A stretch of DNA of 64,000 nt, taken from positions 88,306 to 152,305 of the forward strand of contig JBBSVQ010000007.1 of NCBI GenBank assembly GCA_038046725.1, written 5' to 3'. Made by a program: the position numbers and the translations under genes. How positions within the stretch are numbered: position 1 is the first letter of the stretch; every line of letters starts with the position of its first letter. Source of the stretch: Thermoplasmatota archaeon. GTDB lineage: Archaea; Thermoplasmatota; E2; JACPAO01; JAHFTW01. Below the pieces are notes generated by a model. It saw only the letters and a list, made by a program, of their open reading frames with translations. It was not told the origin of the DNA and made no database searches. Shown here piece by piece: positions 19,041-26,402 of the stretch.

Positions 19041-20381
19041 CTAAGGTTGCGGCGGCGTCTCGGCTGGCGCCAACGGGGCGGTGGGCCCGGCGTCCTGCCC
19101 AGGCACTGGTGACGCGCGCCGCACCTCGGGCTCCGCCTCCGTCACGGCGGCGTGCGCGGCGGCAACGTGGTGGGCGGCCGTGCCGGACGTCGCGCCCATC
19201 TCGGGGGCGTCAACCTTGAGGATGCGCTCAACCTTCTCCTCGATGGCGCGGGCCTGGGCTTCCGAGAGGCCGAGTTGCGTGCGCAGGTTGCGCAGGAACG
19301 CCATCTCGCGCTCCGACACTTGGGCGTCGCGCAAGACGTAGGTGCATTGGGCGTGGTAGACTTCGGCGGCGCGGGCGAGCGCGGCGTCGCCTTCGGCCGG
19401 CCGCGGCAACAGCTTGTCCGAGACCTTGCCGGACATCCGCTCGATGGGCTTGAACAGCACGATGCTGGTCGTTCCGGAGAGCAGGAAGGAGCCGTACTCG
19501 CCGGCGAAGGCGAAGAGTTGGCCCTGCAGGACGATGTTCTCGATGGCCTGCGTCACGAGGAAGACCACGACGAAGACGAAGCCGACGACGGCGGACTTGA
19601 CGCCGACGCGGAACTTCGGGTCCACGCCGAGGATGTTGTACTTCAGAATGGCAAAGCCGACGAGGCCGGCTGCGACCATCTCGAAGATGGGGGACAGGAA
19701 GCGCAGGACGAACCCGGTCTGCTGCTGGGCCTGGTCCGCAGGAAGCCATCCCCCTTCGGCGCCGAAGATGTAGAACGTGATGACCCAGGTCGCCATGAAG
19801 GAGGGCAGGAACCCGAGGGCAACGTAGGTCGCCTGCTTGCGCTCGATGTGGTCAGGCGAGCGCCGGTGCGTCCGCACAAGGAGCCAAAGGGCCGCCGCCG
19901 TCATCGTGGTGGCCACGACATTGAACCCCAGGACGATGTCGTTGAACCAGGGACTGTCCTGCGCCAGGAAGACGACCCAGCCGACGACGAGACTGGGCAC
20001 GAACACGAGAACGCCGCGCCAGCGGTGCTGCACCATCCACGGCTGCGGGCGCGGGAACGTCGCGCAGAACAGGAACAGCAACGGCAACATCGCCAAGGCG
20101 CACACGATGGTGACGTACAGCCAGGTCAGGGCATCGGGGAACAGCGGCGAGGAGGCATGCAGTTCGTTCGCGACGAAGCCCATCGTCCCGTCGGCCCGCT
20201 TGAAGGGCGCCGTCAACCCGTCCCCGAGCGACTTGACGCCCGACAGGAGGAACAGGACCCCGAACAAGCGGGTGTGCAGATGGGCCCCGCCCTTGCGCAA
20301 CACCAACGTGGCAAGCGCCAGCAGGGCGATGCCCACGAGCAGCGGCAATGCGACCGCGAGAATCTCCGTGGCCGTGGGCAC
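19041..20381 (-). CDS. Multi-TM sensor-like membrane protein with a C-terminal TerB-like helical domain
   Basis: About 9 TM segments; FAILKYNIL; C-terminal LRDAQVSEREMAFLRNLRTQLGLS; paralog at 50223-51557. Confidence 0.7.
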   Translation of the reverse strand: MPTATEILAVALPLLVGIALLALATLVLRKGGAHLHTRLFGVLFLLSGVKSLGDGLTAPFKRADGTMGFVANELHASSPLFPDALTWLYVTIVCALAMLPLLFLFCATFPRPQPWMVQHRWRGVLVFVPSLVVGWVVFLAQDSPWFNDIVLGFNVVATTMTAAALWLLVRTHRRSPDHIERKQATYVALGFLPSFMATWVITFYIFGAEGGWLPADQAQQQTGFVLRFLSPIFEMVAAGLVGFAILKYNILGVDPKFRVGVKSAVVGFVFVVVFLVTQAIENIVLQGQLFAFAGEYGSFLLSGTTSIVLFKPIERMSGKVSDKLLPRPAEGDAALARAAEVYHAQCTYVLRDAQVSEREMAFLRNLRTQLGLSEAQARAIEEKVERILKVDAPEMGATSGTAAHHVAAAHAAVTEAEPEVRRASPVPGQDAGPTAPLAPAETPPQP

Positions 20382-20512
20382 GATGGCTCAGTCCCCTGGC
20401 AGCATTAGAGGGTTTCCAGCGCCAGGTCTGGTGCACCTGTGCAGGGGCGTCATCCGCGCCATACAGGTCCGTCCCGGGCAAGGTTGAAGGGGTGTTTGGG
20501 CTCGTTTGCTCG

Positions 20513-22168
20513 GTGCCCATCGCGACGCGGCTGCGTCCTGCATGGCTTGTCTTGGTCCTTTGGCTTGCCACGGTCAACGCTGCGGGGCAACTCGCAATCG
20601 GGGTGCAAACGCAGGGAAGCCTGCTGGTTGGACAGGACAAGCTGGCTGGCGAAGCGCGCATCGAGGCCTTCGATTCCTACGGCGTGACAATCGCAGATCT
20701 TGACGGTGACGGCCGCCCCGAGCTGATCGCCATGAATGACAACTCGCGCGTGTACGTCATCGACACCGCCACCCATCGCGTGCGGGCAGAAATCACGACG
20801 GCGCATCCAGGGGGCAAGACCGCTTGGCACACACAGTCCCTGAACGGCGTGGCCGTGGCTGACATGGACGGCGATGGCCTCCAGGAACTGCTGATTCTCA
20901 ACTCGGGTGGCATGCTGACTCGGCTGGAGCGTGACCCAGACCTTGACACACCCGCCGTGCTCGGGCTTCGCAAGGAATGGGCGGTCTTGGCCCATGCGCC
21001 GGCGTTCCAGCCTCGCTTCTGGGACGAGCGGCCTTGGTTCACCCCGACGAAGGCCGCCGACACCCCACAACTGGCCCACAGCGCAGCCGTGGTGGCGGCC
21101 CCCGCGCCCGAGGCGGCGCAGAGCTGGGTCTACGTGCAAAGCGACGGGCTCTCCGGCCAGTTCGCCTTCGACCATGAAGGCCGCCTGCAATGGCTCGAGG
21201 CCTGGCAGGACGGCCACGCCGGGCCCTGGGTGGGTGCGATGGGGGGGCGTCAGACCGTTCTGTTCGCATCCGACGCGGGAGAGCTCACCGCCCGCAACGC
21301 GCAGACCGGTCAACTGGTCTGGCAACGACAGGTTGGTCCCAAGGTGAGTCCGGGCAGCCATTCGGTGGGCCCCGTCGTCGCCGACCTTGACGGTGACGGC
21401 CGGCAAGAGATCTTCGTTGCAGCCCGCAACGTGGCATCCGGCGTTGATTGGATGCAGCGCTCGCACGCTCAGCTTGAATTGCTGGACGACCAGGGTGCCC
21501 TGCTTTGGTCCGTGCAGCACCCGGAGGGGAACCCCATGGTCCACTCCCGCGCCATCCCGCACGATGTGAACCGGGACGGGGTGTTGGACCTCGTCGTGCT
21601 GGACTGGAACACCATCGGGCGCAAACCGGGCAACTGGGAGCGCCTAGGCCCCGGCAATCTCTTCGGCTTGGACGGTCGCAACGGTTCCGTGTTGTGGAGC
21701 ATCGCCATCGAGGCGCCAGCCACGGACTTCGATCTTGCCCTGGCCGATACCGACGAGGGACGGGTAGCGCTCGTCCCGCATGCCGTGGCAGGCCGCCATG
21801 GCCTGGCCACCATCCAACTGGACGATGGCCGTTTGCTCGCTTGGCAAGAACTGCCGGACGGCTGGAACACGACGCGGGGCGCGACGCTTGTACCGACCTC
21901 GAAGGGAGGCTGGGAGGCATGGGTCGCCATGGACCGTCCTGGGCTCGATTGCGCCCCGAAGGAGGATGTTGCTTGCCGCGATGGTGCCTTTGCCGTCTTG
22001 CCTCTACGAACGAGTGGGCCGACACCCCAGGGCTTGGCGCCAGCCGCGCTGCCGTCTGAGGCCCTCGAGGCGGTCACGGGCGATGCCGACCCGCTGGCGG
22101 CCGGCGGGGTGCTTCCGCTGGCCTTCGTAGCTTCGGTTGTGTGGGCGCTGCGCACTCGCCGCGACTGA
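20513..22168 (+). CDS. Secreted FG-GAP repeat protein with a C-terminal membrane anchor
   Basis: ADLDGDGRPEL, ADMDGDGLQEL, ADLDGDGRQEI, DVNRDGVLDLV; TM followed by RTRRD; start uncertain. Confidence 0.75.
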   Translation: MPIATRLRPAWLVLVLWLATVNAAGQLAIGVQTQGSLLVGQDKLAGEARIEAFDSYGVTIADLDGDGRPELIAMNDNSRVYVIDTATHRVRAEITTAHPGGKTAWHTQSLNGVAVADMDGDGLQELLILNSGGMLTRLERDPDLDTPAVLGLRKEWAVLAHAPAFQPRFWDERPWFTPTKAADTPQLAHSAAVVAAPAPEAAQSWVYVQSDGLSGQFAFDHEGRLQWLEAWQDGHAGPWVGAMGGRQTVLFASDAGELTARNAQTGQLVWQRQVGPKVSPGSHSVGPVVADLDGDGRQEIFVAARNVASGVDWMQRSHAQLELLDDQGALLWSVQHPEGNPMVHSRAIPHDVNRDGVLDLVVLDWNTIGRKPGNWERLGPGNLFGLDGRNGSVLWSIAIEAPATDFDLALADTDEGRVALVPHAVAGRHGLATIQLDDGRLLAWQELPDGWNTTRGATLVPTSKGGWEAWVAMDRPGLDCAPKEDVACRDGAFAVLPLRTSGPTPQGLAPAALPSEALEAVTGDADPLAAGGVLPLAFVASVVWALRTRRD

Positions 22169-22188
22169 ACCCCTGCGCTCGCCTTCAT

Positions 22189-22468
22189 GATGCCACCGGG
22201 GACATCAACGCCGGAAGCTTCAGTGAGGGCCCTCTGCGCTTCGCTCGGTTAGTAACCCAGCTGAATCTTCCCGCCCGTCCGGCGGCATTGCGAGCAATGC
22301 CGCCATCAAGGCGGAAACATCGGTTGATGCTACGAACGGCGCTGCGCGCGTTCAGTAGCCCAACTGGATTTTTCCGCCCTGCCTCGCCCTTCGGGCATTG
22401 GCAAAGCGGGAAGCTTCCGACTCAGATTCTTTCGCTGCGCTCAGAATCCGAGCTGAATCTTCCCGCCC
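22189..22468 (-). repeat. Three-unit array of recoded gene-3'-end copies with antisense arms and spacer hairpins
   Basis: 28-nt copies at 22441-22468, 22352-22379 and 22249-22276 encode GGKIQLG(F/Y)*; each is followed by a GCGCAGCG/GCGAAGCG loop, an imperfect antisense arm and a short hairpin. Confidence 0.85.
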
Positions 22469-23388
22469 TTCTTCAGCTGGTCCAGCGCGGACTCCTGGGC
22501 GCGTTCGATGGCGCGGGGGTCGCTGACGCTGCGGCGCGCCGTCTGGTTGACCTCGCGGATCTCCGTGCGCTGGGCGTCGAAGGCGGCCTTGCGGTCGTTG
22601 CGGATGGACATGACCTTCTCGCGCAGTTCCATCGCCTTGTTGTGGTTCTCGTCGGCCTTCGTCTTGCAGGCCACGAACTCGGCGTGCTTGGCGTTGGCCT
22701 CGTTGACGAGGACGCGGGTCTCCTTGACGGCCGCGATGAACTTCTCGTGGTTCTCCTGCGCGACCTTCTGGTGCTTCAGGACTTCCTCGTGCTCGGCGTC
22801 GGCCTTGGCGAAGAGGGCGTCGATATCGCCATCCGCACCGCTGAGCTCGACGGCGACGACCTGCTGCTTCTTCAGCTCGGCTTCCTTCTCCTTGAGGTCC
22901 TTCCAGATGGCGCTGATCTCTTCGACGAGAACGCGCTCCTTGGCGACGGTGAGGGTCGTGGTCTGCTGCAGCTCAATCTTGGCCTGCAGGTCGTTGCGCA
23001 GCTTGCGCACCATCAGGGGCAGGGAGCGCTCGAGGCCGCCCGCCTTGCCCTTCTTCTGCGCGATGAGGGCCTTGGCCTGGTCCTGGTAGGCGTTGCGCAG
23101 CTCCTTGTGCTTGCGCATCTCCTCGTTGGCGGCGTCGCGGGCCGTCTTGTGGCCGTCGATGCCGGCCGCCATCTCGCGGCGGTGGTCGTTGAGTTGGTTG
23201 CGCTCCTCGGCCGCCTTGCGGGCGAGGTCGTTGAAGGAGTTGCGCTGGTCGAGCAGGTGGTTGAATTTGTCCTGCAGGTTGCGCACGTCGGACTCCGTCT
23301 TGGGGGCGGCGTCGACGGCGGGCGCGGCGGCGCTCTCGGTCGCGGGGGCGGTCGGGGGCGGGCTGGCGGCTGGCGCGTCGGCGGTCAT
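22441..23388 (-). CDS. Conserved archaeal coiled-coil protein (COG1340-like)
   Basis: Long heptad-rich helix with LQQTTTLTVAKERVLVEEI; C-terminal LKKGGKIQL. Confidence 0.8.
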   Translation of the reverse strand: MTADAPAASPPPTAPATESAAAPAVDAAPKTESDVRNLQDKFNHLLDQRNSFNDLARKAAEERNQLNDHRREMAAGIDGHKTARDAANEEMRKHKELRNAYQDQAKALIAQKKGKAGGLERSLPLMVRKLRNDLQAKIELQQTTTLTVAKERVLVEEISAIWKDLKEKEAELKKQQVVAVELSGADGDIDALFAKADAEHEEVLKHQKVAQENHEKFIAAVKETRVLVNEANAKHAEFVACKTKADENHNKAMELREKVMSIRNDRKAAFDAQRTEIREVNQTARRSVSDPRAIERAQESALDQLKKGGKIQLGF

Positions 23389-23477
23389 CGTGCGGCGATC
23401 CTGGCCCGAGTCGCCCCGGGCGTAGGTCGCGCCACTCCCTCTTCCAGATAAGGACTTCGTCTGGGGTCCTCGAGGCC

Positions 23478-25034
23478 CTACGCTGGCAACACGCGGACTC
23501 GGACGCGGTTCTCGCCGGGGCCGGCGGTCCACGACAGGCGCACCGTCTTCGTCGCGCGCGCCGCAAGGGTGAGCGCCGCCTCGTCGCGGTCGAGGTCGTC
23601 GGCGGCAAGCACGACGCGCACCTGCCGCGACGGGCCCGGGTTGCGCAGGACGACCTCCGTCGTGACCTCCTCGCCCTCCTCGGGGGCCTCGGGTTCGTGC
23701 GTCACGGACTCAATCTTGAGGGCGCCGCCGACGGTGGCCGCAGGCGGCGTCGGCCCACCGTCGCCTTCCTCGTCCTCGGGTTCGTCGTCATCTGCATCTG
23801 CCTTCTTGGCCGGGGCGACGAGGGGCAGCAGTCCGGCGGGGGCCTGGTCACCGCCCTTCATCGGCGGGGCCTCCGGTGCCGCAGAGCCCGCGAGGGTGCT
23901 GGGCGCGAGCGCGACGAGGAGGAAGATGGCCAGGATGACGAGCAGGACGATGAGGGCAAGCAGCACGAGTTCGGCGTACTTTCCGAAGGCACCGTCGAGG
24001 CCGAGGGATTCGGCTGCGGGCGTCATGAAGTCGAGGCCGGCGGGGACGACTTCGCGTTCGCTTGCCGGCGGGGCGAAGGAGAAGACGGCGACGGCAGTGT
24101 CGGTGGCTCCCCGCGTCGTCGTGACGGTGAACGTGACCCGGATTGTCCCGGGGTCCATGCCGGCCAGCGAGATGGGAACCGTGGCTTGCGCATCGCCGGC
24201 AAGCGGAATCGCGACCGTCGAAAGGACCGGGGGTTGCTTCAGGGGCGGGTCGGAGGAAACGGCAAGCGTGTACGCGTCGGCGTCCGTTCCGAGGTTGCTG
24301 ATGCGCAGGCGGACATCGTAGGTTCCGCGTTCCTGCGTGGTGAGGGCGTTGCCGGTCTTGTTGCCCACTTGGGCGACGCCGACATCGACGCCGGCCGTGG
24401 GTGTCGGCCGGGCCATGGTGTAGTTCGCGCCCGGCCCTGCTGCGTCGGTGCCGGTCTGGTCATCCTGCGTGACGGTGGGGTCGGTGACGGCGCCCAAGTC
24501 GGTGCGCGTGGTCGTGAGGTTGAGCCCGGTGAGCAGGTCGCCGCCCACGGCACCGACGCGCCCGATCCCGACCTGGATGCGCAGGCCATCGGGGCCGACG
24601 GCCGCCGTCGCGTTGGGAAGGCCAGTGACCGTGGTGCCGGTCACCGTCAACGTCACCGTCTGTCCTGTGGCCGTCGAAGCCGCGTAACTGGTCGGGCCGC
24701 GCTCGACGCGGAAGGTCGCTGTCAGCGTCCCCGTCGTCCAGGAGGCCGTCGTCGCCACAAGGAGGGCGAGGTCGGGGCAGTCGAGGGCGTTCTCCCCGAC
24801 GCAATCCACCGTGCGTGGCTGCTCGAACCAGGCGGCGACGAGGTCGATGTCGTCGAAGGACTCGTCGTTGACGCCGGGGATGAGGGGCGGAAGATCGGGC
24901 CCTCCGGGACGAGTCACGGCTTGGTCGCCGGCGGCGTCCTCAAGTTCGGGGTCCGCGGCGGTGCCGGCGTGCGCCACTGGAGCCCAAGCTGCGGCGACGA
25001 GCAGAAGCACGGCGGCGGCGCGCAGGCGAAGCAT
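23478..25034 (-). CDS. Secreted/membrane-anchored Ig-like protein with a C-terminal CARDB-like domain
   Basis: Signal peptide MLRLRAAAVLLLVAAAWAPVAHA; Thr-rich beta strands; central TM; C-terminal EVVLRNPG domain. Confidence 0.7.
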   Translation of the reverse strand: MLRLRAAAVLLLVAAAWAPVAHAGTAADPELEDAAGDQAVTRPGGPDLPPLIPGVNDESFDDIDLVAAWFEQPRTVDCVGENALDCPDLALLVATTASWTTGTLTATFRVERGPTSYAASTATGQTVTLTVTGTTVTGLPNATAAVGPDGLRIQVGIGRVGAVGGDLLTGLNLTTTRTDLGAVTDPTVTQDDQTGTDAAGPGANYTMARPTPTAGVDVGVAQVGNKTGNALTTQERGTYDVRLRISNLGTDADAYTLAVSSDPPLKQPPVLSTVAIPLAGDAQATVPISLAGMDPGTIRVTFTVTTTRGATDTAVAVFSFAPPASEREVVPAGLDFMTPAAESLGLDGAFGKYAELVLLALIVLLVILAIFLLVALAPSTLAGSAAPEAPPMKGGDQAPAGLLPLVAPAKKADADDDEPEDEEGDGGPTPPAATVGGALKIESVTHEPEAPEEGEEVTTEVVLRNPGPSRQVRVVLAADDLDRDEAALTLAARATKTVRLSWTAGPGENRVRVRVLPA

Positions 25035-25415: not shown

Positions 25416-26402
25416 CTACCGTTTCACGGCCTTCGTGGACTTGGCCGCGACCTCGCGAACCGCTGGCGCCGGATTCCCCGCATCGGCTACGCCGCCCGGC
25501 ACCTTCTGCTTCGTCGTCAGCACCGGCTCCATCAGGTCCCCGTGCTCCTCGTACCGCGCTAGGACCTGGTCGGGACTGAAGCGAAGGTCGGCGGCGTCTT
25601 TCGCATCCGCCCCGTCCTCGACCTCTTGCCACGTCAAGGGCGCCGCCACCGTCGGCGTCGGCTGCGCACGCAGCGAGTAGACGCAGACCGTCGTTTTGTG
25701 CTCGTTGTTCTGCGACCAGTCGATGAACACCTTGCCGCCGCGCAGGTCCTTGCGCATCACGGACGTCACCTGCTTGGGGTGGTCGCGTTCCAGAACTTGT
25801 GCGAGGGCACGCGCGATGGCGCCGGTGTGCTCGTACGTGACTCCCGGCGTGTTGAACGGCACATGCATCTGCAACCCCTTGCCGCCGGAGACCTTGGGCC
25901 ACGCCTTGAGGCCGAGCGATTTGAGGTCGTCGCGCAGCCAGAGGGCGACGCGGGCGCAGTCGAGGACGTTGGCGGGCGCGCCGGGGTCGAGGTCGAAGAC
26001 CATCATCGTGGGCCGCTCCAGCTTCGGGGCCTTGTGCATGAACGTGTGCAATTCCAGGTCGGCGGCGTTGGCGAGCCACACGAGGCTCGGCAAGTCATTG
26101 CACAGCAGGTAGTTGATGGGCGCGCCGCGCGCCTCGCTCGGCACAGGGTGCGTCTTCATCCAGGCGGGCTTGTTGGCCGGCGCTTCCTTCTGGTAGAAGT
26201 ACGGCTCCTCGACGCCGTTCGGGTACCGCTTCATGCTCACGGGCCGGTCGCGCATGTGCGGCAGGAGCGCGGGCGCGATGCCGATGTAGAACTGGATGAC
26301 CTGCGCCTTGGTGAACCCCGACTTGGGGTAGAGGACCTTGTCCGGGTTCGTGATGTCGACGATGCGGCCCTCGACTTTGAGGGGGTGCTTCTCGGTCGCC
26401 AT
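25416..26402 (-). CDS. LigD polymerase (AEP primase-polymerase) domain protein, NHEJ
   Basis: ITNPDKVLYP, KRYPNGV, FYQKE, FDLDPG, KVSGGKGLQMH, VFIDWSQN, YSLRA. Confidence 0.93.
   Translation of the reverse strand: MATEKHPLKVEGRIVDITNPDKVLYPKSGFTKAQVIQFYIGIAPALLPHMRDRPVSMKRYPNGVEEPYFYQKEAPANKPAWMKTHPVPSEARGAPINYLLCNDLPSLVWLANAADLELHTFMHKAPKLERPTMMVFDLDPGAPANVLDCARVALWLRDDLKSLGLKAWPKVSGGKGLQMHVPFNTPGVTYEHTGAIARALAQVLERDHPKQVTSVMRKDLRGGKVFIDWSQNNEHKTTVCVYSLRAQPTPTVAAPLTWQEVEDGADAKDAADLRFSPDQVLARYEEHGDLMEPVLTTKQKVPGGVADAGNPAPAVREVAAKSTKAVKR

Follow-up and report, generated by a model that had tools for sequence, protein, structure and literature searches.

Short imperfect hairpins that follow gene ends, sometimes in arrays, are formed by repetitive extragenic palindromes (REP) and bacterial interspersed mosaic elements (BIME) with REP-associated tyrosine transposases (RAYT), and by elements derived from IS200/IS605; these act as single strands, are dispersed, share their sequence and depend on Y1/HUH enzymes. 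It is common for integrative elements to supply a substitute 3′ end to the gene in which they insert, and islands are known to integrate at guaA, where such repeats flank kilobases of DNA with an integrase. Integron attC sites have a conserved core at the base of the stem and need IntI. In diversity-generating retroelements the variable repeat lies at the 3′ end of a gene, with the template repeat nearby and a hairpin after the variable repeat, and the changes are adenine-specific and alter the protein. Here we describe an array in which the last eight codons and the stop of a gene recur downstream as synonymously recoded 'spare' ends, each followed by an antisense arm of its own. It lies on the minus strand, 3′ of a gene for a DUF7121 coiled-coil protein (22441-23532), in a stretch of 64,000 nucleotides (the window) from a Thermoplasmatota archaeon, which corresponds to positions 88306-152305 of contig C7 of an assembly (G000) of 2.07 Mb in 46 contigs, 86% complete and with 67.7% G+C.

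Several of these systems resemble the array in part. Compared with REP and IS200/IS605-derived elements, the stems described here are gene-specific and confined to one locus each, and no Y1/HUH transposase (PF01797) was detected in any of 32 genomes of the family, all metagenome-assembled and 65-94% complete, whereas the control search was positive in 6 of 14 reference genomes. With integrative elements the arrays share a direct repeat of the 3′ end, diverged but frame-preserving, and GMP synthase as a target; here, however, a structured spacer of 50-160 nt without cargo separates the copies, and the spares are constrained. Integron cassettes also form arrays of units that each end in an imperfect, variable hairpin with conserved bulges, and their order, too, is changeable. 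In the arrays, in contrast, the bases of the stem are the gene's own codons, which differ among the three genes concerned, and the units contain no open reading frame (ORF); IntI was not specifically searched for. A non-coding copy of a gene's 3′ end beside the gene, with a hairpin, is likewise seen in diversity-generating retroelements, but here the differences are mostly at third positions, involve all bases and are synonymous, and the array holds no ORF (reverse transcriptase was not searched for). In T4 gene 60, as here, a very stable hairpin takes up the stop and the codons before it in its 5′ arm, and a short non-coding insert sits at a conserved essential gene; there, however, the coding sequence is split by the insert, which ribosomes have to bypass, while here the first copy completes the protein.

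Template switching can make the stems of RNA hairpins and repair them in one step (Monttinen and Loytynoja 2022, PMC8794818). The likeness to our case is that one event writes the reverse complement of its neighbour and repairs the stem, which fits arms that are self-derived and track the variants of their copy; that work concerns the stems of RNA genes, and direct coding-end spares, alternating recoded types and extragenic coding constraint do not figure in it. A narrow search of open-access text, supplements excluded, returned no description of recoded spare gene ends. The processes that would build such an array are known ones; the arrangement itself, in which DNA outside a gene is under coding-type constraint, seems to be undescribed.

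Array anatomy and stem structure

The DUF7121 protein (363 amino acids by the longest ORF; Pfam PF23435, E 1.2e-10) has the C-terminus GGKIQLGF*. Its working gene end, S0 (22441-22467; on the minus strand, as is every part of the array), comprises the last eight codons with TGA and forms the 5′ arm of hairpin 0. Loop 0 (22431-22440) holds GCGCAGCG with the mini-hairpin motif GCGCAGC, which also stands 3′ of the stop in relatives and at other gene ends of the same genome. There follow the imperfect antisense arm A0 (22406-22430; 21 Watson-Crick pairs, one G·U, two mismatches and one bulge) and spacer hairpin 0 (22379-22405; -12.8 kcal/mol, z -3.1). The first spare, S1 (22352-22378), encodes GGKIQLGY*, lies 89 nt 3′ of S0 and is in frame +2 relative to it. 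Loop 1 (22336-22351) again contains GCGCAGCG and GCGCAGC, arm A1 (22310-22335) follows the codon variants of S1, and spacer hairpin 1, which we call the Y hairpin (22276-22309), has a perfect 11-bp stem (-19 kcal/mol, z -4.3). The second spare, S2 (22249-22275), also GGKIQLGY* but with a TAA stop, lies 192 nt 3′ of S0, the unit spacings being 89 and 103 nt, and is of the same synonymous type as S0, so that the array reads a-b-a. Loop 2 (22231-22248) holds GCGAAGCG with GCGAAGC, and arm A2 (22210-22230) is degraded (arm score 21.5; weak fold). The array tail (22100-22209) has a weak 4-bp hairpin (~22189-22206) and possible remnants of a fourth unit. The arm-like stretch at 22103-22121, judged by eye, possibly belongs to a decayed fourth unit; it lies inside the last codons of a convergent FG-GAP/beta-propeller gene (20348-22168, plus strand), the 3′ end of which overlaps the array tail from 22168 downwards.

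S1 differs from S0 at seven bases (codon positions 3, 3, 3, 1, 3, 3 and 2) and S2 differs from S0 at four (3, 3, 2 and 2), and all of these changes, F to Y excepted, are synonymous or stop-to-stop. The initial annotation of this DNA, made from its letters alone, had reported the two synonymous recurrences and their spacings correctly, though its copy ranges were one base too long because the G preceding each copy had been included; of the three spacer hairpins that it described, those at 22276-22309 and 22379-22405 are supported by folding and the third is a 4-bp stem only. Folding of S0 with A0 gave -34.3 kcal/mol (z -4.6) and of S1 with A1 -36.4 kcal/mol (z -6.0), with none of 200 shuffles as good in either case. 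The fold of S2 with A2 was weak (-23.9 kcal/mol, z -1.3; 24 of 200 shuffles as good), and the 331-nt stretch as a whole folded with a z of -5.2. An Rfam search over 21500-23000 gave a best score of 17.8 bits against a threshold of 39 (E 0.87). Tandem Repeats Finder at minimum score 30 returned 0 rows for the array, because whole units are too diverged and only the 27-mers stay alike.

For all arrays, the ideal antisense of each copy was aligned to the sequence 3′ of that copy, and arms scoring at least 20 were counted. Watson-Crick pairs number 437 in these arms, alongside 20 G·U and 4 A·C, 62 mismatches of other kinds and 33 gaps; the arms are 75-90% complementary to their own 27-mer. A process acting on DNA would be expected to produce G·T and A·C in equal numbers, so the 5:1 excess of G·U over A·C on the sense strand argues for selection at the level of the transcript. 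Identical one-base bulges and an A·G mismatch are found again in paralogous and orthologous arms, so that the imperfection is a conserved shape rather than decay. When 13 hairpins were aligned, double-sided changes appeared at the pairs that face the third positions of codons 2 and 4, in 5 and 6 sequences, respectively; each arm thus tracks its own copy, as had been proposed from the window alone. Accordingly, the duplex of A0 with S0 (-35.5 kcal/mol) is far more stable than that of A0 with S1 (-12.6 kcal/mol). Over all arrays the duplex energies were -25 to -42 kcal/mol with the own copy and -12 to -28 kcal/mol with the next, and the two were equal only in the young array of genome G016, whose copies are identical. 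Recoding thus keeps the hairpins from cross-pairing. A relay of alternative pairings, with arm i on copy i+1, was considered and rejected, as its energies are weak in recoded arrays.

Relatives of the Y hairpin precede spare ends in G011, G002 and G016, and also occur at other genes. Its motif gave 13 matches in the 32 genomes against 2 control matches, and it shows compensatory changes between species, judged by eye. A hairpin of the Y form was also seen between two tRNA genes (locus L087 on contig C14 of G016), so this type of hairpin may be a general processing or termination signal in the family.

An independent contig of the probable source run (X1) spans 21900-22702 with 0 differences, and three other studies yielded contigs that match the window exactly over 22397-22576, 22377-22607 and 22287-22437, parts that bridge neighbouring units. 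No unit-number variant was found in the contigs of these four runs, parts of the stretch being uncovered in X2-X4. Collapse of strains in assembly, a concern that the initial annotation had raised, would seem natural given that every genome used is metagenome-assembled; but four runs of four studies agree in independent contigs, the same architecture is present in many assemblies and each arm is complementary to its own copy, and we regard the probability of such an artefact as negligible. One contig of run X3, from a related strain and aligned at 22259-22311, has after the Y hairpin a copy with S0-like synonymous states, a TAG stop and different downstream sequence. This copy is unlike S2, indicating that array structure differs between close strains.

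Recurrence at three genes and constraint on the spares

The same arrangement recurs at three essential-type genes across this family of uncultured archaea. We searched the DUF7121 protein in 41 related genomes, one metagenome collection and the 32 family genomes; the protein search found orthologues in 39 of the 41, and the metagenome collection yielded 6 loci only. Arrays with their own recoded spares are present at this gene in 13 genomes or contigs. Orthologues with downstream copies are those of G011, G007, G012, G008, G017, G016, G022, G042, G045 and G024, of metagenome contig L035 and, in decayed form, of G002. The working end is followed by an arm at 12 of 27 DUF7121 loci, 9 of which also have a spare; of the 15 without an arm, 1 has a spare. 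Neighbouring copies are 68-183 nt apart in all arrays.

When all 1532 predicted gene ends of G000 were scanned for a downstream 27-mer with at least 22/27 identity, five matched, compared with 0 in a control with shuffled pairing. The five are the DUF7121 gene, a GMP synthase gene on contig C3, the shared tail of the stalk proteins P0 and P1, one further match, and a duplication across a run of N. Recoded spares of GMP synthase occur in the exact pattern in 10 of 30 genomes with a match, and in damaged form in 4 more (14/30). The third gene, for ribonucleotide reductase (Pfam PF02867), was reached through the shared hairpin motif and has arrays in 2 genomes. No array was found in the sampled order- and class-level relatives (9 DUF7121 loci and 7 GMP synthase loci). 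The initial annotation had named analogous units at other genes, variable unit numbers with hairpin-free empty alleles, and working ends elsewhere that match the spares as observations that would support its account, and all of these exist; S1, for instance, is identical to the working end of G011 at 24/27 positions and to that of its own gene at 20/27. The P0/P1 match lies outside the window, at ~47,400-47,750 of C7, where two adjacent genes that we take to be a true paralogue pair of ribosomal stalk proteins share the tail AGLGALFG* with 5 synonymous differences; the pair served as a natural positive control for a repeated end that is truly translated. At two places on contig C16, exact gene-end duplications flank runs of N and are scaffolding artefacts, not arrays.

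To avoid translation-based bias, spares were gathered by nucleotide identity alone, as downstream 27-mers at least 18/27 identical to their own gene end. This gave 21 spares in 17 of 55 loci, with 106 base differences from the working ends: 57 synonymous codon changes, 10 stop-to-stop changes, 18 nonsynonymous changes and 3 stop losses. The 21 damaging changes compare with a simulated mean of 70.2 and a minimum of 57 (2000 runs, with the same numbers of changes placed randomly), and 9 of the 21 fall in two clearly decayed third copies. This result suggests that the spare gene ends are kept usable by selection, and extends to the whole set the earlier impression that the copies in the window are shaped by coding selection. 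In intact spares the stop was never turned to TGG, and in 5 arrays serine is encoded by TCN in one copy and by AGY in the other. Codon 5 is common to gene and spares, being Q in all three copies of the window, K in both copies of G011 and T in G007 and G012; in G024, where the protein ends two residues early (GGKISL*), the spare does likewise. The first spare is intact in 11 of 13 DUF7121 arrays, and the second in 2 of 7. Coding-type purifying selection is usually taken as proof of translation; here, extragenic stretches of 27 nt keep codons, lineage residues and stop across a family.

Several other sources of this pattern were considered and rejected. Small ORFs that end in a spare would need a start, and no in-frame ATG, GTG or TTG precedes S1 or S2 in the window; a stop lies 10 codons upstream of S2 and of the G011 spare. 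Rescue by readthrough or frameshifting is not consistent with spare frames that spread over 0, 1 and 2, nor with the in-frame stops that intervene in some arrays. An antisense ORF as the source of the three-base periodicity was also dismissed: the plus-strand ORF at 22141-23451 is codon-aligned, but its third positions face the first positions of the copies. Gene conversion alone cannot, we argue without computation, yield many synonymous and almost no damaging differences. Conversion does seem to occur, as the copies of G016 are identical over 39 nt while their arms differ.

Alternating types and the origin of the arrays

The GMP synthase copies fall into two synonymous haplotypes, a (ACG GTC GAG) and b (ACC GTG GAA), and neighbours within an array are of opposite type. 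Six three-copy arrays, which span all three genes and include that of the window, read a-b-a. Within genera the order flips. In genus g11, G022 is b-a, G045 a-b and G046 a-b-a-a; in g6, G041 is a-b while G042 and G017 are b-a; and in g4, G043 is b-a and G044 a-b. In congeners with a flipped working type the modules are homologous, non-coding parts included; members of a genus have conserved modules, and other genera have different ones. Point mutation cannot swap several linked synonymous sites in both copies together with their flanks, whereas loss or gain of whole modules can. The order flips are therefore the strongest evidence, drawn from comparison of these sequences, to suggest that a spare becomes the working end on the time scale of speciation.

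We favour, tentatively, a reading in which the array is a vertically inherited series of structured modules in the 3′ untranslated region, built by template switching and tandem duplication, that expands and contracts in register so that spares repeatedly become the gene end. A module would consist of the gene-end 27-mer with its stop, a loop of the GCG(A/C)AGC type, an imperfect antisense arm and a second GC-rich hairpin. Template switching during replication would write the arm from the gene's own end and keep it in step; the GCG(A/C)AGC mini-hairpin, which is very stable, may nucleate the switching, and, with coding sequence on the 5′ side, the surviving events would be those that overwrite the 3′ side. 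The marks of template-switch hairpins are present, namely an arm that is the reverse complement of adjacent sequence and double-sided changes at several pairs, and from these we infer the event itself. Tandem duplication would then yield gene end, arm, hairpin and gene end again, with recoded pairs favoured because their folding is unambiguous; with two alternating types, each arm would pair only with its own copy. Duplication of a whole block would account for a-b-a arrays such as those of G016 and G008, in which units one and three are almost the same. The upstream module would be lost in register, by slippage or by microhomology-mediated joining at the conserved start of the 27-mer, and the next spare would then be the working gene end, while lineages with a broken nearest spare would lose an essential or conserved C-terminus along with the module. 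Each loss would thus test the next spare, so that spares stay coding-competent while drifting at synonymous sites; this would explain the intact nearest and decayed farther spares, the kept stop, the host residues and the co-occurrence of arm and spare. The hairpin itself has a putative use in protection or formation of the mRNA 3′ end.

Some observations weigh against this reading. Both types keep their synonymous states across genera, which horizontal spread could have produced instead. In G001, the GMP synthase spare shares only ~5 contiguous bases with the working end, so that promotion of this spare by homology would depend on microhomology joining. Neither loss nor gain in register was observed directly: the contigs of the four runs, which are blind to rare variants, have no joint across a unit. 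The hairpin arm is lacking at 15 of the 27 DUF7121 loci, where with one exception the spare is lacking too; the module is thus dispensable in many relatives and its benefit putative. Five spares have a nonsynonymous change or a lost stop. Selection through occasional promotion would be of second order, its strength only presumed. Finally, the same change at codon 5 is present in all copies of one genome, flanked by bases that differ; such uniformity is hard to obtain by conversion or by independent mutation, and is awkward for every model.

Among the alternatives, the initial annotation had taken the array for an imported site-specific element that inserted serially at a conserved gene end, with the antisense arm as a possible guide for an enzyme acting in trans. 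What it had noted of the coding mark, the variable units, the matching foreign ends and the other genes has held; the import and the guide have not, because all copies are in tandem at their own gene, the modules are genus-specific and the spares have host residues, and because the arm pairs with its own copy in cis and nothing shows a guide role. Taken as a whole, this idea of a small non-autonomous element that homes to conserved 3′ ends with a recoded foreign end, is serially stacked, perhaps comes in two competing types and uses its antisense arm for recognition is unlikely in our judgement, though it has points in its favour: its targets would be the conserved ends of GMP synthase, ribonucleotide reductase and the DUF7121 protein, the a-b alternation is strict, the most 3′ copies are the most decayed, and species distribution is patchy. 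A locus-specific cassette moved by a further enzyme, likewise unlikely, would fit the alternation, the choice of target and the patchiness. Some spares are also closer to another species' end than to their own (26/27 versus 22/27 in G007, 25/27 versus 18/27 for GMP synthase of G001, and 26/27 versus 21/27 in G017), but such foreign matches are not unusual, since working ends average 21/27 between species with a maximum of 26/27. Moreover, the units have no second locus in the genome: searched against G000 with blastn-short, the array gave only self matches beyond 18 nt, and every sequence in the 32 genomes able to encode these ends is in tandem at its own gene (0 control matches for two patterns). 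No copy flanks a larger insert in the 32 genomes, and TnpB (PF07282) gave no match in G000, the sole genome searched for it and 86% complete. The non-coding parts of the modules follow the host genus, the spares share the host's lineage-specific residues and stop position, and the excess of G·U suggests that selection acts on the RNA. Single-locus copies, the lack of Y1/HUH matches in the 32 genomes and of a TnpB match in G000, and genus-bound spacers together argue against a dispersed element, the mechanics of IS200/IS605 or REP, and scars of large elements. The last of these, in which the copies would be attL/attR-like scars of large integrative elements once seated at gene ends, is highly improbable; G000 does have three tyrosine recombinase genes, all on other contigs, but no two copies in the 32 genomes are more than 183 nt apart, the spacers are structured and conserved within genera, and scars would decay at the neutral rate.

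The other alternatives concern what keeps the spares. If they were under pure structural constraint, retained as the strand of a functional RNA stem or for binding a factor and never serving as gene ends, the conserved imperfect stem shape, the G·U bias and the covariation would all be expected, and the purine-purine variation of the stop would presumably be neutral opposite U-U. Yet in recoded arrays an arm pairs poorly with the neighbouring copy, so that the coding constraint of the working end cannot pass down the chain, and in G011, G012 and G017 the terminal spare is intact although its arm is slight or missing. A stem alone, furthermore, permits compensated change at any codon position, against 21 damaging changes where about 70 are expected and stops that are never TGG in intact spares. 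The sequences of the three genes are unrelated, which makes a single sequence-specific factor unlikely, and the order flips already suggest that spares become working ends; overall we consider this explanation rather improbable. Still less probable is that ribosomes read the spares on the same mRNA, by hopping of the gene 60 kind, frameshifting or readthrough, which would place them under direct translational selection. A stop in the 5′ arm of a very stable hairpin does recall gene 60, unit lengths disregard the reading frame, and the first codon of the DUF7121 27-mer is constant (GGC in all listed copies but one, which has GGT), as a match of take-off and landing sites would have it. The GMP synthase spares, however, have no constant identical codon shared with the working end, and the first stop already ends a complete protein; copies are separated by in-frame stops in G000 (S2) and G011, no start codon precedes S1 or S2 in the window, and first spares occur in all three frames (0, 1 and 2).

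Under the favoured reading, with spares kept through periodic promotion, the arrays would be a natural, selected backup for part of a gene and a visible record of 3′ ends built by template switching and duplication. They might go further and represent a new form of genetic redundancy, in which a gene with its last codons caught in a useful yet fragile hairpin has recoded 'spare tyres' of its 3′ end standing ready, two-type recoding blocks mispairing and premature recombination, and the next spare is promoted to mend breakage or slippage at the hairpin, so that selection acts on DNA outside any gene; this we consider conceivable but doubtful. In a bolder version, the modules would be two competing homing cassettes, each ousting the other at the junction with the gene body, with recoding as immunity. 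The arrays offer a test system for the fragility of stop-codon hairpins in archaea, for microhomology repair at gene ends and for the reach of second-order selection. Such loci would be overlooked or misinterpreted by annotation pipelines and by screens based on the ratio of nonsynonymous to synonymous substitution (dN/dS). At conserved gene ends, in addition, synonymous 'haplotypes' may flip by rearrangement and not by point mutation, which affects the phylogenetic use of these sites.

Neighbouring genes and other gene-end hairpins

At a distance of 3 kb from the array, a gene on the minus strand (25416-26402) encodes a LigD primase-polymerase domain (Pfam E 5.5e-83). Its product is an end-joining polymerase, which may bear on repair at the hairpins.

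Inspection by eye showed about 8 more gene ends of G000, on contigs C10, C16, C4 and C11, at which the stop is followed by GAGCG(A/C)AGCGA(A/G) and an imperfect antisense arm, with no clear spare. One of these, at a protein that ends in VVFEQML*, may have a decayed copy ~130 nt downstream. A positional scan for GCG(A/C)AGC found a modest excess after stops, with 16 sense sites in the first 20 nt compared with 0-4 per 10-nt bin within genes. A genome-wide fold scan around the motif (2587 sites) was uninformative because, with a GC content of 68%, nearly any sequence folds. Intergenic DNA also contains long, near-perfect hairpins with many CACGAA/GCGAA repeats, on C40 (~63,030), C11 (~190,780), C8 (~8,650) and C38 (~20,020), which may constitute a separate repeat family.

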